This document shows, one piece after another, positions 14,261-57,108 of a DNA stretch of 64,000 nt (positions are counted from its first letter, which is position 1; each line of letters starts with the position of its first letter). Both the position numbers and the translations under genes were made by a program. This DNA comes from Escherichia coli (lineage in GTDB: Bacteria > Pseudomonadota > Gammaproteobacteria > Enterobacterales > Enterobacteriaceae): NCBI RefSeq assembly GCF_024298765.1, contig NZ_CP101210.1. One strand, 5' to 3'. Under the pieces are notes generated by a model. That model was given only the letters and a program-made list of their open reading frames with translations, was not told where the DNA came from and made no database searches.

Positions 14261-15543
14261 AAAACGGTCACTCCTTTCATGCCATCCTTGATCAGATTGA
14301 TTAAGCCCACTTTCTTGCCGTGGCGGAGGATTTTCTTGCGCATCAGTTCCGGCGCACTGCCGTCAATGGTGAACAGGTCACGCGCCACGCCCACCGCCAG
14401 TTCCGGGTAGCCGCTAAACATGCGTGGGTTATCAAGGAACGCCGGTAGTTTCTGGTACATGCGCATATCGCGCAGCGGGCCACTCTCAAGATGCTGACGA
14501 TATTCCGCGAGTTTTTGCTTACTGAAATCGTCGCTTTTCATCGCTGAAAGCACAGTTTTTGCTGCTGCTTCCCCGGCGGCAATCGCCAGATCCATACCGC
14601 GAATGGTAAAACCGAGGTTCATACACATTCCGGCAGCATCACCGGCAATCAATACGCCGTCACCAACCAACTCCGGCAGCATGTTGATACCTGCTTCCGG
14701 CACTACGTGAGCGGAATATTCCACCAGCTTGCCGCCCGCGATCAGCGGTGCAACGGCCGGATGTTGTTTGAAATCTTCCAGCATTTGCGGCACCGATTTT
14801 TTTGCGTCATGCAGATGATGCAAACCACAAACCAGCCCCAGCGACAGGGTATTTTCATTGGTATAAAGGAAGCCACCGCCCATCAGGCCATCGGTGGGTG
14901 ATCCCGCAAACAGGCAAGCCGCGCCCTGATTACCCTGCAACTGAAAACGGTCTTCGATAACCGACTTCGGTAACTCGATCAGTTCCTTTACGCCAACCGC
15001 CACATCCGTCGGTTTAACGCGTTTTGCCATCCCCAGCTTTTCGGCAAGGATGGAATTCACCCCATCAGCAAGGATCACCGTTTTCGCTTCAATCACATCG
15101 CCATCGGCTTCTACACCGACGACTTTGCCATCGCGCTGTACGAGGTTATCGACGCGGATCCCGGTAATTAACTGCGCGCCCGCTTCTTCAGCCTGCTCCA
15201 TCAGCCAGGCATCAAATTTACTGCGCAAAACGGAGTAAGAACGCTGGGATGGCGAGGTTTCGTCGCCATTGCAGTAGTCCATAGTCATCGCTGACTTTTC
15301 CGTCATAAACGCGAGTTTTTCATGGGTGATCAGGCGTTCTACGGGGGCGGAGTCAGCGAAACCAGGAATAATGTGTTCCAGACTGTGGGCATAGAGACGC
15401 CCGCCGGTGACGTTCTTGGCACCTGCGGAATTGCCTCGCTCGATAACTAACACTTGCGCACCTTCGCGGGCGAGCACTAGTGCGGCAACCGAACCGGCAA
15501 GCCCTGCACCGACGATGATGGCGTCAAAGATATCTTCGGACAT
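14257..15543 (-). CDS. fixC: Flavoprotein oxidoreductase FixC
   Basis: 428-aa ORF with N-terminal FAD-binding GAGLAG motif. Confidence 0.93.
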   Translation of the reverse strand: MSEDIFDAIIVGAGLAGSVAALVLAREGAQVLVIERGNSAGAKNVTGGRLYAHSLEHIIPGFADSAPVERLITHEKLAFMTEKSAMTMDYCNGDETSPSQRSYSVLRSKFDAWLMEQAEEAGAQLITGIRVDNLVQRDGKVVGVEADGDVIEAKTVILADGVNSILAEKLGMAKRVKPTDVAVGVKELIELPKSVIEDRFQLQGNQGAACLFAGSPTDGLMGGGFLYTNENTLSLGLVCGLHHLHDAKKSVPQMLEDFKQHPAVAPLIAGGKLVEYSAHVVPEAGINMLPELVGDGVLIAGDAAGMCMNLGFTIRGMDLAIAAGEAAAKTVLSAMKSDDFSKQKLAEYRQHLESGPLRDMRMYQKLPAFLDNPRMFSGYPELAVGVARDLFTIDGSAPELMRKKILRHGKKVGLINLIKDGMKGVTVL

Positions 15544-15593
15544 AAGAGCTCCCTGTCAGCGGCAGGGCCAAAATGCAGCCCTGCCAGAGTGGA

Positions 15594-16535
15594 TCAACGC
15601 GCTAAAGCTGCGGTCAGTGCCGGAAGGATCTTCACGGCGTCGCCAACAATGCCGTAATCCGCGTACTGGAAGATCGGCGCATTTTTATCTTTGTTGATGG
15701 CGAAAATGGTTTGCGACGCATTAGCGCCAACCATGTGCTGGATCTGCCCGGAGATCCCCACCGCCAGGTACAGTTCAGGTTTCAGCATCAGGTTGGAGAT
15801 ACCGACATAGCGTTCGTGCTCCATCCATTTTTCGTTTTCCGCCACCGGACGAGAACAGGCCAACTCCGCACCTATCGCCTTGCAAAGCTGTTCTGCCAGC
15901 GCAATGTTCTCTTTGCTGCCAATACCGCGACCAACGCTGACCACCAGGCGGGCTTTGTCGAGATCGACGCTGTTGCTCTGACGCGCCTGGGTTGCCGTGC
16001 GGGTAATCGCCACAGCCGGAGCCTGCCACTCCACGGTGTGCGTTTCGCCAGTGCGTGACGCGTCTGGCTGAGCCACATCGAACGTGCCGCTGCTGATGGT
16101 CAGAACCGCATACGGCGTGGCAATGCGTTCTTCGCCAATCGCCAGACCGCCGTAAACCATGTGTTTCACTGTCGCTTTACCGTCCTGCACGCTAACAGCG
16201 CTGGCATCGTTAGACACCGCCGCGTTAAGGCGGTAACCCAGTTTCGCCGCCAGTAATTTGCCGCGACGGGTGTTTGGCAACAGCACCAGACCGTCTGCGC
16301 CGTGCTGGCGAATAGTGTCAGCCATGACACCGGCGTAATCTTCGATCATCCGCTCGTCCGGTTTGCCGCTTAATTTCCAGACATGATTAGCACCGAGCTG
16401 GATTGCCTGTGCGCCGTCGGCATCATTGAGGACGAACGTGTTGATTTGATTAGCTAAAGCCTGCGCACCGTTCATCAGTTCCGGCAGACGAGAAGGGGTA
16501 TCGCTGAATACCCAGACTTGAGAAAACGTGTTCAT
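15594..16535 (-). CDS. fixB: Electron transfer flavoprotein alpha-subunit homologue FixB
   Basis: 313-aa ORF; synteny in fixABCX. Confidence 0.93.
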
Positions 16536-16549
16536 AGCATCCCCTGTAA

Positions 16550-17320
16550 TTAAATGACTTTGCGAAGATTTTCAGCAAATGCGGCGATCTGTTCTTCGCC
16601 GTCGCCTTCAATCACGATGCGCTGACGCTCGCGCTGTTTCGGCGCGGCAACCTGTTGTTCTGACCAGGCTGCCTCTGCGTTAAAACCGATATCCGCCGCC
16701 GACCATACCTGGACTGGCTTTTTCGCCGCGCCGAGAATGGCTTTCATCGAAGGAATTTGTGGGGAGTTGATATCAGTGGAAACAGCAACAACCGCAGGCA
16801 GCGGAATGCTTAAGGTTTCTGTTTCATCTTCCAGTTCGCGCTCAACGGTGAGGGTATCTGCAGTCAGGGAGATAATTTTGCTGACGCCGTTAACTGCCGG
16901 AATATTAAGGATTTCGCCTACCAGCAAACCAACCTGCTGGGCATAAAGGTCGGAAGAACCATCGCCACAGAGGATCAAATCAAAGCCTGCTTTCTGAGCG
17001 GCTGCAGCCAGTACGCTCGCCGTTTGTTGCGGCAGTGCCTGCTCGAACTGGTCATCAATCACCACAATCAGTTCATCCGGACCGCGCGATAGCACATCTT
17101 TACGCCCTTTGGCGTTGGTCAGGGCTTTACCGCCCACACTTAAGGCCGTCACCTGCGCCTCTGCTGCCTGTTGCTTTAGCTGGCAAGCCGCTTCAATAGC
17201 GTTGAGATCGTATTGGCTTATTTTGGCATCGGCTTTGCTGAAGTCTAACGAACCATCAGCATTATTGACCGCAATATCCTGTTCATCAGGCACGCACTTA
17301 TAGCAAGTAATAATCTTCAT
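16550..17320 (-). CDS. fixA: Electron transfer flavoprotein beta-subunit homologue FixA
   Basis: 256 aa from ATG at 17320 ([15 protein letters not shown]). Confidence 0.93.
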
Positions 17321-30105: not shown

Positions 30106-30143
30106 AGAATATTCACTCACTTTATTTGCATATTAATTCACAA
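30106..30143 (-). promoter_or_regulatory. carAB P2 operator: tandem ARG boxes (ArgR binding)
   Basis: Minus-strand sequence TGAATTAATATGCAAATAAAGTGAGTGAATATTC matches the ARG-box pattern just upstream of carA. Confidence 0.65.
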
Positions 30144-30472
30144 TGATGACGTAAATCAATGCAAATCTGCTTACCGACGAATTTCTGGCAAACGGCGGCA
30201 TTCTGGAGATATGGGAGCTAAAAGTCAACTTAATGGCGGGATTTTTTATATTATTTTGTGGCTCATGCATGTTTTACAGGCATTAAGCGGCAAAAAGATC
30301 ATATAACATGTTCTGGAAAACGCTTGCGCAGCAAGAAGATTGCATGAAATCAAAATGAGCAGAAAAAAGTGGACCAAATGGTCAAAATTTACATTAAAAC
30401 AACAAAAACAGAATACAAAACATGTAATTTTCAGCACTTGCATTAAATTTAAAAGAATAACACCAAAAATAA

Positions 30473-41157: not shown

Positions 41158-41639
41158 TTTTTATTTCTCTTTCAGGTGAATAGATCGTTTTTACTATCTT
41201 ACCCCGCACGAATCATCGTTAAAATCAGATTATAGTGTAGGAATAATTCGCTTTTTACGAGGCATTGAAAGATTTGCGTCATCAGTGATGATATGAGTTT
41301 TTGACGGCTGTAAGCGCTGACGTGTGACCCTAAGCCCTGATAATCATAGCTTAAGGTAAGGATTTCTGAGGGATTAATTGGGAAAAGTAATAATTAATTT
41401 GTTGTCAGTCGGCGATGTTTGTTAGGCCAATACTTCAAAAATAATCCAGTTTGTCGTCAATAATTGCGATGAAGAGATAAATTAAAGTTAAATAATTAAA
41501 TCATTAAAAAATTACGCCATAAAAATGCGAGGCGTCTTCAGGATTAGAATCGATAAAACAGAATGGGTTAAAGAGAGCGATATAATAGCGGCGGGTGCTT
41601 GAGGCTGTCTGTCTCAGGCATTAGCTGAACGGCAGATAG

Positions 41640-41694
41640 AGAAAAGCCCCGAGTGATATTTTACTATCAACCCGAGGCCCCCTATATGCAGAAC
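41640..41694 (-). ncRNA. sokC: sokC antisense RNA (position inferred from K-12 annotation relative to mokC)
   Basis: Placed by synteny opposite the mokC 5' end; boundaries not verifiable from sequence alone. Confidence 0.35.
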
Positions 41695-41895
41695 ACATGT
41701 AGAGTGCCTCTTACTGACCGTAAGGTCAAGGAGAAGAGAGCAATGAAGCAGCATAAGGCGATGATTGTCGCCCTGATCGTCATCTGTATCACCGCCGTAG
41801 TAGCGGCGCTGGTAACGAGAAAAGACCTCTGTGAGGTTCACATCCGAACTGGCCAGACGGAGGTTGCTGTTTTCACGGCTTACGAATCCGAGTAA
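41686..41895 (+). CDS. mokC: MokC, overlapping reading frame that couples hokC translation
   Basis: ATG at 41686 (MQNTCRVPLTDRKVKEKRA) reading through into the hokC frame. Confidence 0.7.
   Translation: MQNTCRVPLTDRKVKEKRAMKQHKAMIVALIVICITAVVAALVTRKDLCEVHIRTGQTEVAVFTAYESE
41743..41895 (+). CDS. hokC: Hok-family type I toxin HokC (Gef)
   Basis: 50-aa ORF MKQHKAMIVALIVICITAVVAALVTRKDLCEVHIRTGQTEVAVFTAYESE. Confidence 0.88.
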   Translation: MKQHKAMIVALIVICITAVVAALVTRKDLCEVHIRTGQTEVAVFTAYESE

Positions 41896-41967
41896 GAGCA
41901 ACGGCGGGGAGTGATTCCCGCCACTTTTCAGGTGCTCGCATATCTTCAACGCACCCTGGTTTTACCC

Positions 41968-41995
41968 AGGCCTGCCCACGGGCAGGCTTTTGGGG
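41968..41995 (+). terminator. Terminator hairpin downstream of hokC
   Basis: GCCTGCCCACGGGCAGGC followed by TTTTGGGG. Confidence 0.55.
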
Positions 41996-41998
41996 AGG

Positions 41999-43129
41999 TT
42001 AGCGGGTCAGGTCGTCAAAAAACTTCTTCACACCATCAAAGAAGCTCTTTGAGCGCGGGCTGTTGTGCTCGCCGGTTGGGCCACCGAAGCTTTCTTGCAG
42101 CTCTTGCAGCAGCTGTTTCTGCTTCTCGTTCAGGCCTACCGGTGTTTCGACGACAACGCGGCACAGCAAATCACCCTGTGCGCCACCGCGGACAGACTTG
42201 ACGCCTTTACCGCGCATACGGAACAGCTTACCGGTCTGGGTTTCGCCAGGCACTTTCAGTTTGACGCGACCATCAAGGGTCGGTACTTCGATTTCGCCAC
42301 CCAGCGCCGCCATAGCGAAGTTGATCGGGACTTCGCAATACAGGTTGTTACCTTCACGCTCGAAAATCGGGTGCTGTTTAACCTGAACCTGAACGTACAG
42401 ATCGCCTGCCGGTGCGCCATGCTCGCCCGCTTCACCTTCGCCCGCAAGACGGATGCGGTCTCCAGTGTCCACCCCTGCCGGGATTTTAACGGACAGCGTT
42501 TTGCTGCGCTCAACACGACCATGACCATGACATTTGTTGCACGGATCTTTGATCAGCGTACCGCGGCCCTGACAGTGTGGACAGGTCTGCTGCACGGCAA
42601 AGAAACCCTGGCGCATCTGCACCTGACCAGAACCATGACAGGTCGGACAGGTCTGCGGCTGTGTACCTGGTTTTGCACCGCTACCGTGGCAAACGTCACA
42701 CTCTTCCAGAGTCGGAATGCGGATCTCTTTGGTCACGCCACGTACAGCTTCTTCGAGGGTGAGCTCCATGTTATAGCGTAAATCAGCACCGCGCGCCGCA
42801 CGTTGACGACCACGTCCGCCGCCAAAAATATCGCCGAAAACGTCACCAAAAATATCGCTGAAGTCTGCGCCGCCGCCAAAACCGCCGCCGCCCATGCCGC
42901 CTTGATCAAACGCAGCATGACCATACTGATCGTATGCCGCACGTTTTTGCGAGTCGGTCAGAACTTCATAAGCTTCCTTGATCTCTTTAAATTTCGCCTC
43001 GGCCTCTTTGTCACCCTGGTTACGGTCCGGGTGGTATTTCATGGCCAGGCGTTTGTAGGCCTTTTTGATTTCACGCTCTTCCGCTGTTTTGGAAACGCCT
43101 AAAATCTCGTAATAATCTTGCTTAGCCAT
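41999..43129 (-). CDS. dnaJ: Chaperone DnaJ (Hsp40)
   Basis: 376 aa from ATG at 43129 ([12 protein letters not shown]), G/F-rich region and four CxxCxGxG zinc motifs. Confidence 0.97.
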
Positions 43130-43217
43130 CTTTTTTAAATTGCCCCTAGATGAATGCACGGGCGGAGAGGAAATACCCCTTCGCCCGTGTCAGTATAATT
43201 ACCCGTTTATAGGGCGA

Positions 43218-45134
43218 TTATTTTTTGTCTTTGACTTCTTCAAATTCAGCGTCGACAACATCGTCATCTTTCGCGTTGTTTGCAGAAGCATCAGCACCGG
43301 CAGTCTGCTGCTGGGCATGTTGCTGCTGGGCGATTTCCATCAGTTTCTGGGAAACCTGTGCCAGTTCCTGCATTTTCGCTTCGATAGCGGCTTTGTCTTC
43401 ACCTTTCAGAGCAGTTTCCAGTGCAGTCAGTGCAGACTCGATAGCAGTTTTGTCGTCAGCCGGCAGTTTGTCGCCCGCTTCTTCAACCTGCTTACGGGTG
43501 CTGTGCAGCAGATGGTCGCCCTGGTTGCGAGTCTGTACCAGCTCTTCAAACTTACGGTCAGCTTCGGCGTTAGCTTCTGCGTCGCGTACCATTTTCTGGA
43601 TTTCATCTTCGTTCAGACCAGAAGAAGCCTTGATGGTGATCTTCTGCTCTTTACCGCTGTTTTTATCTTTCGCGGAAACGTGCAGGATACCGTCAGCATC
43701 GATATCGAAGGTAACTTCGATCTGCGGCATGCCGCGCGGTGCCGGGTTGATACCATCCAGGTTGAACTGACCCAGAGATTTGTTATCAGCTGCACGTTTA
43801 CGTTCACCCTGCAGCACGTGGATGGTTACCGCAGACTGGTTGTCTTCAGCGGTAGAGAACACCTGGCTGTGCTTGGTCGGGATAGTGGTGTTTTTCGCGA
43901 TCAGCGTCGTCATCACACCGCCCATGGTTTCGATACCCAGAGACAGCGGGGTAACGTCCAGCAGCAGTACGTCTTTTACGTCACCAGTCAGAACACCACC
44001 CTGAACAGCAGCACCGATTGCTACAGCTTCGTCCGGGTTAACGTCTTTACGCGGCTCTTTACCAAAGAACTCAGCAACTTTCTTCTGAACCATTGGCATA
44101 CGAGTCTGACCACCAACGAGGATAACGTCGTCGATATCAGATACGGACAGGCCAGCGTCCTGCAGTGCAACTTTCAGCGGCTCAATGGAACGGTTTACCA
44201 GATCTTCAACCAGGCTTTCCAGTTTCGCACGAGTCACTTTGATGTTCATGTGTTTCGGACCGGTCGCGTCTGCAGTGATGTACGGCAGGTTAACGTCGGT
44301 CTGCTGAGCGGAAGACAGCTCGATTTTCGCTTTTTCTGCCGCTTCTTTCAGGCGCTGCATTGCCAGCGGATCGTTGCGCAGGTCAATGCCCTGATCTTTC
44401 TTGAATTCTTCAACCAGGTAGTTGATCAGACGGCTGTCGAAGTCTTCACCACCCAGGTGGGTATCACCGTTGGTTGCCAGAACTTCGAAGGTTTTTTCGC
44501 CGTCAACTTCGTCGATTTCGATAATAGAAATATCGAAAGTACCACCACCCAGGTCATAAACCGCGATAGTACGGTTGCCAGTACCTTTGTCCAGACCGTA
44601 AGCCAGCGCAGCTGCGGTCGGTTCGTTGATGATACGTTTTACTTCCAGACCAGCGATACGGCCTGCGTCTTTGGTTGCCTGACGCTGAGCATCGTTAAAG
44701 TATGCCGGTACGGTGATAACAGCTTCAGTTACCGGTTCACCCAGGTAATCTTCAGCGGTTTTCTTCATTTTTTTCAGCACTTCAGCAGAGATCTGCGGCG
44801 GTGCCATTTTCTGGCCTTTAACTTCGACCCATGCGTCGCCGTTATCAGCAGCAATAATTTTGAACGGCATGATGGAAACATCACGCTGTACTTCTTCGTC
44901 CTGGAAGCGGCGGCCAATCAGGCGTTTAATCGCAAACAGGGTGTTTTGCGGGTTCGTCACTGCCTGACGTTTAGCCGGCTGACCAACCAGAGTTTCACCA
45001 TCCTGGGTATAGGCAATGATAGAAGGCGTGGTGCGATCGCCTTCGGCGTTCTCCAGTACACGAGGAGTGGTGCCATCCATAATCGCTACACAAGAGTTGG
45101 TAGTACCCAGGTCGATACCAATTATTTTACCCAT
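43218..45134 (-). CDS. dnaK: Chaperone DnaK (Hsp70)
   Basis: 638-aa [20 protein letters not shown]. Confidence 0.98.
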
Positions 45135-51619: not shown

Positions 51620-51760
51620 AGCCAATGCCGGATGCGGCGTGAACGCCTTATCCGGCCTACAAAAGCATGCAGATTCAATATATTGCAGAATTAACGTAGG
51701 CCTGATAAGACGCGCCAGCGTCGCATCAGGCGCTGAATGCCGGATTGTTACCCGGCATTT
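51620..51760. repeat. REP element cluster between convergent yaaA and yaaX
   Basis: GCCGGATGCGGCGTGAACGCCTTATCCGGCCTAC and GTAGGCCTGATAAGACGCGCCAGCGTCGCATCAGGC. Confidence 0.65.
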
Positions 51761-56983: not shown

Positions 56984-57021
56984 CGAAAAAAAAGCCCGCA
57001 CTGTCAGGTGCGGGCTTTTTT
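56984..57021 (-). terminator. thr attenuator (leader terminator hairpin)
   Basis: Minus strand AAAAAAGCCCGCACCTGACAGTGCGGGCTTTTTTTT between thrL and thrA. Confidence 0.85.
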
Positions 57022-57039
57022 CTGTGTTTCCTGTACGCG

Positions 57040-57108
<69 letters not shown>

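Follow-up and report, generated by a model that had tools for sequence, protein, structure and literature searches.

The IS186-free hokC/mokC/sokC locus beside dnaJ in an Escherichia coli chromosome

Gene content and layout of the locus

Between nhaA and dnaJ of this Escherichia coli chromosome lie hokC, which encodes a small Hok/Gef membrane toxin, the mokC frame that reads into it, and, on the opposite strand, the antisense RNA gene sokC (Table 1). The window, that is the whole 64,000-nucleotide stretch analysed, runs in reverse of the K-12 map, so that hokC is on the plus strand and dnaJ is convergent with it. The hokC stop codon is TAA (41893-41895) and that of dnaJ begins at 41999, leaving a gap of 103 bp (41896-41998); terminal repeats of IS186 are absent from the entire 64 kb. 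The first-pass annotation had described a spacing of about 100 bp free of insertion sequences, and the count agrees. A 901-bp stretch around hokC has 100% identity to many E. coli chromosomes in which mokC and dnaJ are annotated at this place, among them strain 104 and several avian isolates.

The same annotation placed the locus at 41640-41998. The upstream limit falls short: the -10 box of the hokC promoter and the 5' end of the mRNA (near 41593) both lie before it, and SokC, read on the minus strand from 41694 to 41636, also extends beyond 41640. Other Rfam matches in the window that reach their gathering scores are naRNA4 (901-980), ES003 (30141-30193), tpke11 (43130-43207, between dnaK and dnaJ), ES036 (51661-51703) and the thr operon leader (56985-57104), all of them expected in such an E. 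coli chromosome segment.

Table 1. Features at and around hokC, in window coordinates
Feature	Position	Strand	Basis
nhaA	39991-41157	minus	ORF list
hokC promoter, candidate -10 box TATAAT	41581-41586	plus	read from sequence; perfect match
full-length hokC mRNA (putative)	41593-41965	plus	5' end at GGGUGCUUGAGG, Rfam match, fold
tac element (predicted)	41593-41604	plus	nt 1-12 pair with 41944-41956 in MFE and centroid folds
SokC, 59 nt	41636-41694	minus	K-12 sokC (b4413, 16952-17010) mapped through the alignment
SokC-target hairpin of processed mRNA (predicted)	41674-41710	plus	truncated-RNA fold and Rfam consensus structure
mokC, 69 aa, includes hokC in frame	41686-41895	plus	ORF list, K-12 annotation
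sokC promoter (candidate)	41701-41729	minus	read from sequence: -35 TTGACC 41729-41724, 17-nt spacer, weak -10 CACTCT 41706-41701
hokC, Hok/Gef membrane toxin, 50 aa	41743-41895	plus	Pfam PF01848, ORF list
G+C-rich 3' hairpin GGCGGGGAGUGAUUCCCGCC, then ACUUUUC	41903-41922	plus	folds, K-12 junctions
masking strand (predicted)	41923-41943	plus	pairs with mokC start and SokC-target region 41684-41706 in full-length fold
fbi (fold-back inhibition) element CUUCAACGCACCC (predicted)	41944-41956	plus	12 pairs with tac
terminator-type hairpin, core 41969-41988	41965-41994	plus	fold; U run 41988-41991
dnaJ, convergent with hokC	41999-43129	minus	ORF list and annotation of genomes identical here
dnaK	43218-45134	minus	ORF list

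HokC has the length (about 50 residues) and the above-cut-off HOK_GEF match of the Hok/Gef family: it covers profile positions 1-42 of 42 of Pfam PF01848 with 85.5 bits (E = 1.8e-24, cut-off 22). Against the NCBIfam Hok subfamily profile it scores 46.8 bits, under the cut-off of 73. K-12 encodes the same protein, and the two genes differ by a single synonymous change at 41802. The mokC frame, which matches HOK_GEF with 84.2 bits, is open and is preceded by a Shine-Dalgarno sequence, GAGG (41674-41677), 8 nt before its AUG (41686-41688); its second codon is CAG (Gln) where K-12 has CTG (Leu). Both frames had been called intact on first reading, as the ORF list and the Pfam matches confirm. They had also been called overlapping, which needs rewording: both are open, but mokC is an in-frame N-terminal extension of hokC, with no out-of-frame overlap. 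An upstream mok frame of the expected kind is thus in place, through which hokC would be translated.

Two details concern annotation and editing. In a genome identical over this stretch, the RefSeq pipeline PGAP gives the name mokC to the 50-residue hokC ORF, which could mislead automated annotation. Tyr47 of HokC is encoded by UAC followed by G (41881-41884), and UACG is the editing motif of TadA. Low-level A-to-I editing of the K-12 hokC mRNA, recoding Tyr to Cys, has been described (PMC12214031).

Promoters, antisense RNA and predicted mRNA folds

The perfect -10 box of hokC lies 7 nt 5' of the start of the Rfam match described below, and is paired with a poor -35 region (ACAGAA, 41558-41563) that contains one difference from K-12, at 41561. 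The sokC promoter region is the same as in K-12, where sokC is annotated as a non-coding RNA. A consensus scan of 41400-42100 for promoters and terminators detected none of the expected hokC and sokC elements, its thresholds being too strict for weak promoters and a short U run: the hokC promoter was missed because its -35 region is weak, and the 3' terminator because its T run is below the scan threshold. The promoter and terminator assignments in Table 1 therefore rely on identity to K-12 and on the folds.

SokC, as mapped from K-12, is a cis-antisense RNA overlapping the mokC start. In its predicted fold (-23.6 kcal/mol, z = -4.7), a 9-nt unpaired tail at the 5' end leads into a terminator stem-loop that closes with a U run, which is the shape expected of a Sok RNA. 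On the sense strand, the Rfam sok model (RF01794) matches 41593-41745 along its full length (118.8 bits, gathering score 59; model positions 1-157 of 157), so that the conserved 5' leader structure of hok mRNAs is present. Although this family is named 'sok antitoxin', it matches the leader of the hokC-sense mRNA rather than the 59-nt SokC of the other strand; the name is another potential source of error in automated annotation.

The full-length transcript would begin at 41593 and end either just past fbi or at the terminator-type hairpin near 41994. Both versions fold far more stably than expected (373 nt: -145.5 kcal/mol, z = -5.9; 406 nt: z = -6.4), and the pairing of tac with fbi is found in the MFE and centroid structures of both. 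The two ends of the mRNA are therefore joined by long-range pairing in the predicted folds. A fold-back prediction had been proposed as a check, and in the predicted full-length fold the 5' end does pair with the 3' region. Taken by itself, the tac-fbi duplex (-18.3 kcal/mol) is only modestly above chance: 92 of 2000 shuffled UTRs (p ~0.05) and 5 of 621 genomic tiles do as well or better. Next to fbi, the masking strand engages the mokC start and the region targeted by SokC.

When the RNA is cut back to the G+C-rich hairpin that follows the hokC stop codon, it refolds. The 5' end now pairs with 41644-41650, and a 5' tac stem and the SokC-target hairpin form; the latter includes the GAGG and AUG of mokC and presents the loop CAGAACA (41689-41695). 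The tac element would thus have two partners, fbi in the full-length mRNA and the 5' stem once the 3' end has been trimmed. The G+C-rich hairpin itself is the candidate stop point of trimming. Its distance from 41593 is ~330-336 nt, which fits the ~330 nt quoted for the hokC mRNA of ECOR24 (PMC3562002). The first-pass annotation had recognised a contiguous 'downstream hairpin region' at 41950-41995. Contiguous it is, but the sequence after the hokC stop codon contains two distinct hairpins (41903-41922 and ~41965-41994) with fbi between them.

These elements suggest a control circuit of the R1 hok/sok type. The weak promoter would supply a full-length mRNA that is inert, being held closed by tac against fbi and by 41684-41706 against the masking strand. 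Slow 3' trimming as far as the G+C-rich hairpin would free the 5' end, allowing the tac stem and the target hairpin to form and exposing the mokC ribosome site. Closure and opening are steps described by the predicted folds; those that follow are modelled on R1. The unstable 59-nt SokC would bind the target hairpin by its 5' tail and so block translation of mokC, and hence of hokC. Were SokC lost, HokC would be made and would damage the inner membrane. The transcript ends, the processing, the action of SokC and any killing are put forward here largely by analogy.

IS186 at hokC in K-12 and in other genomes

In K-12 (NC_000913.3), IS186A (15387-16731) sits between dnaJ, which ends at 15298, and mokC/hokC (16751-16960). 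The IS186 copy that the first-pass annotation placed here is thus borne out by the K-12 annotation. Alignment to K-12, carried out as had been suggested, together with the junctions, locates the target duplication GGAGTGATCC at window positions 41908-41917, 13-22 nt beyond the hokC stop codon. Apart from the insertion, eight positions of the locus differ: 41665, 41680, 41690 (MokC L2Q), 41802 (synonymous), 41916, 41928, 41958 and 41959.

The insertion lies inside the 3' hairpin and parts the hokC ORF from the masking strand (41923-41943), fbi and the terminator, all of which are uninterrupted in the window. That the 3' region severed in K-12 is contiguous here is confirmed, and it takes part in the predicted fold-back. 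The IS186-fused transcript of K-12 folds straight into the open form; since IS186 removes everything downstream, this transcript is predicted to be able to adopt only the open, SokC-accessible form. A passage in PMC3562002 gives the view that IS186 in K-12 disrupts fbi and normal processing, and inactivation by insertion elements has been suggested for hokA, hokC and hokE of K-12 (PMC12214031). In the published explanation, the K-12 copy is considered inactive because IS186 takes away the strands that close the mRNA.

Insertions of IS186 at precisely this position, bearing the same duplication, are found in either orientation: in genome L002 it lies as in K-12, and in L003 and L004 it is reversed. 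Read from evenly spaced rows, the split of orientations at hokC is roughly 40:60. Exact counts by 61-nt and 123-nt junction queries are confounded, because IS186 at other G-rich targets, especially at the paralogous hokE, matches as well; hokE carries IS186 at the equivalent place. IS186 prefers a G-run/C-run as its target. The conserved hairpin stem, GGCGGGG...CCCCGCC, fits this preference, and the hok 3' hairpin (GGGG-N6-CCCC) has the appearance of a built-in hot spot for IS186. In the window, the C-to-T change at 41916 turns CCCC into TCCC and leaves GGGG-N7-CCC in place of a perfect GGGG-N6-CCCC. The T is common to 253 IS-free genomes and, judging from the target motif, may make a poorer target for IS186.

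The IS-free state is the usual one. Of 5425 complete E. coli genomes, 3815 match a 511-nt query from the hokC leader to dnaJ without interruption, and in the rest the match breaks at the IS186 site; two 40-mers across the site count 253 + 3520 = 3773 IS-free genomes. Some 70% of complete E. coli genomes are therefore IS-free, including O157:H7, O26:H11, ST131 and O16:H6 strains, and about 30% carry IS186. When one genome per species is searched with a degenerate pattern for the C-terminus of HokC, IS-free hokC adjoining dnaJ is found in E. albertii, in Escherichia sp. E1V33 and in a divergent E. coli; in Citrobacter youngae and Pseudocitrobacter, hokC-like loci are found elsewhere. Because E. 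albertii, Escherichia sp. E1V33 and the divergent E. coli lack an IS at the site, the IS-free arrangement is, on this comparison of genomes, ancestral and K-12 the derived exception. The noteworthy difference from K-12 that the first-pass annotation implied is accordingly not a peculiarity of this strain.

The reverse course, in which IS186 was precisely excised from a K-12-like ancestor, is hardly credible. Insertions of IS186 at exactly this site are frequent in E. coli, but nothing supports excision directly, the sister species are IS-free at the same site, the IS-free genomes span lineages as different as O157:H7, O26:H11, ST131 and O16:H6, and in the window the target is present only once, with IS186 ends absent.

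The surroundings of hokC vary between strains. In the ST131 isolate L006 and the O16:H6 genome L009, an ompK-like outer-membrane protein gene stands at the place of nhaA, and homology to the window is lost immediately 5' of the hokC -10 box (~41580), so that the -35 region differs. Replacement of nhaA by this gene in some strains is probably why the 901-nt query is contiguous in only 2546 genomes, against 3815 for the 511-nt query.

The locus itself has variant forms. In L006 (ST131 isolate 86), codon 3 of hokC (window 41749) is TAG instead of CAG, which interrupts mokC and abolishes the usual N-terminus of hokC; the PGAP annotation has a shorter 'Hok/Gef family protein' from a later Met. The allele that L005 (strain HS-01) carries at the hokC site, between nhaA and dnaJ (985-1140), is hokD-like and its leader is divergent; it too has IS186 in its 3' hairpin. 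In L004 (strain H106), an IS150 lies in the hokC leader/sokC region, at about window 41668, in addition to IS186 downstream. In the 3' UTR of E. albertii (L013), the strand masking the mokC start contains a 4-nt tandem duplication (GCTCGCTCGC versus GCTCGC).

Such variation bears on whether the locus, intact in sequence, is a decaying relic without selected function that is tolerated only through tight silencing. The presence of IS186, in one orientation or the other, in about 30% of genomes, the additional IS150 in the H106 leader, the nonsense codon at hokC codon 3 of an ST131 isolate and the lack of a reported killing phenotype for ECOR24 would all be explained in this way. Against it stands conservation: E. 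coli, E. albertii, Citrobacter and Pseudocitrobacter share the ORF, the 3' hairpin and the long-range helices. The hairpin stem is kept in all three groups (Escherichia, Citrobacter and Pseudocitrobacter), with a variable loop. When a structure taken from the window sequence is scored across 11 sequences, eight of them near-identical, 92.9% of cells are paired, versus 36-47% with the partners slid, and 26 pairs are changed on both sides, versus 5.4 in shuffles. Eight of these 26 belong to the 18 pairs of the masking helices (mokC start with 41923-41943), and the tac-fbi helix is paired in 92% of cells. The 26 pairs changed on both sides and the conserved helices argue for purifying selection on the RNA architecture, and the relic reading is on balance rather unlikely.

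The locus is, very probably, the uninterrupted ancestral chromosomal hokC/mokC/sokC type I toxin-antitoxin module of Escherichia, built like R1 hok/sok. Its gene content, the IS position in K-12, the population frequency, the predicted folds and the pair conservation are shown by the present analysis.

The SokC-target loop and comparison with known hok systems

One element deviates from the R1 model. Judged from sequence and predicted folds, every cis element of that model appears to be present apart from the U of the target-loop motif. Position 41690 is A in the window and U in K-12 and the Rfam consensus, where 'CU' aligns to 'CA' here, and the loop reads CAGA instead of CUGA. Fast binding of Sok in R1 depends decisively on a YUNR U-turn in the target loop (PMC6562991); the window loop, CAGAACA, contains no U at all and hence no such motif. 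Point mutations in the promoter, fold-back or sokC elements had been named as evidence against an active locus. One such deviation is found, but it is a common allele and not a private mutation: A occurs in 1902 complete E. coli genomes (35%), including CFT073, an ST131 isolate and H10407, and U in 3477, with CUGAACA in K-12 and O157. The A is also found in E. albertii and Escherichia sp. E1V33, and the loops of C. youngae and P. faecalis likewise lack U. A lineage-specific loss of YUNR was considered and rejected, given how common the A allele is and its presence in outgroup species.

Because the outgroup loops also lack U, the U-less loop may be the older state of chromosomal hokC. A stronger proposition, that CAGA is ancestral for chromosomal hokC and that SokC pairs with it measurably more slowly than with the CUGA of K-12 and O157, is distinctly improbable. 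If it were true, the tightness of control over an intact hokC would vary among natural E. coli lineages, and CAGA could contribute to the differences in behaviour between chromosomal and plasmid hok loci.

How far the locus is functional can be answered in part. The first-pass annotation proposed that it may be functional in this strain; intactness stands, as at most does a working RNA circuitry, whereas the claim of a killer finds no support, because the IS-free locus of ECOR24 is reported to have given neither killing nor rifampicin activation. The killer reading holds that the absence of IS186 makes this a functional module, unlike that of K-12, in which hokC kills or arrests the cell as SokC decays. 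It can draw on an intact HokC, on cis elements that are all present and fold as in R1, and on the toxicity of the toxin on overexpression (preprint control set, 10.1101/2025.08.07.668861). It is nevertheless unlikely: ECOR24 hokC, also IS-free, reportedly lacks post-segregational killing and rifampicin activation. Given that report, killing on loss of SokC may perhaps be absent from the native chromosomal locus.

The locus is an ordinary one and has already been described: an IS-free wild hokC, and the idea that IS186 disables the K-12 copy through removal of fbi, were published in 1999 and recur in recent papers. The census adds that ~70% of genomes are IS-free, that IS186 enters the same hairpin in both orientations, and that the SokC-target loop has a common two-allele polymorphism. 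The U-less target-loop allele and the two orientations of IS186 are new to the present authors. K-12 is atypical at hokC, and an IS-free strain should be chosen for work on the function of chromosomal hok.

Three known systems bear comparison with the window. The hokC (gef)/mokC/sokC (sof) locus of K-12 occupies the same site between nhaA and dnaJ and has an identical HokC and the same sokC promoter region; its 5' leader differs from that of the window at three positions (41665, 41680 and 41690).

ECOR24, known here from published descriptions, resembles the window in its IS-free state and in transcript length. Its IS-free hokC/sokC was described by Pedersen & Gerdes (1999, Mol Microbiol 32:1090), as referred to in PMC3562002, where it is treated as a regulated sense-antisense pair with an mRNA believed to be ~330 nt long. 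According to a 2026 preprint (10.1101/2025.08.07.668861) citing the same 1999 paper, ECOR24 hokC shows no post-segregational killing and no activation by rifampicin, and chromosomal hok loci are reported there to be unresponsive to rifampicin.

The closest model is hok/mok/sok (parB) of R1, which is plasmid-borne and for which post-segregational killing is proven. It differs in its target loop, with a YUNR motif (CUGA in the R1-type copy) in place of the CAGA of the window. Its elements follow the order seen in the window, tac and fbi are likewise predicted to join the two ends of its mRNA, a G+C-rich hairpin again comes after the stop codon, and its antisense RNA is also a single hairpin preceded by a 5' tail. 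The predicted fold of an R1-type plasmid hok is alike, with a C-G pair where the tac-fbi helix of hokC has U-A.
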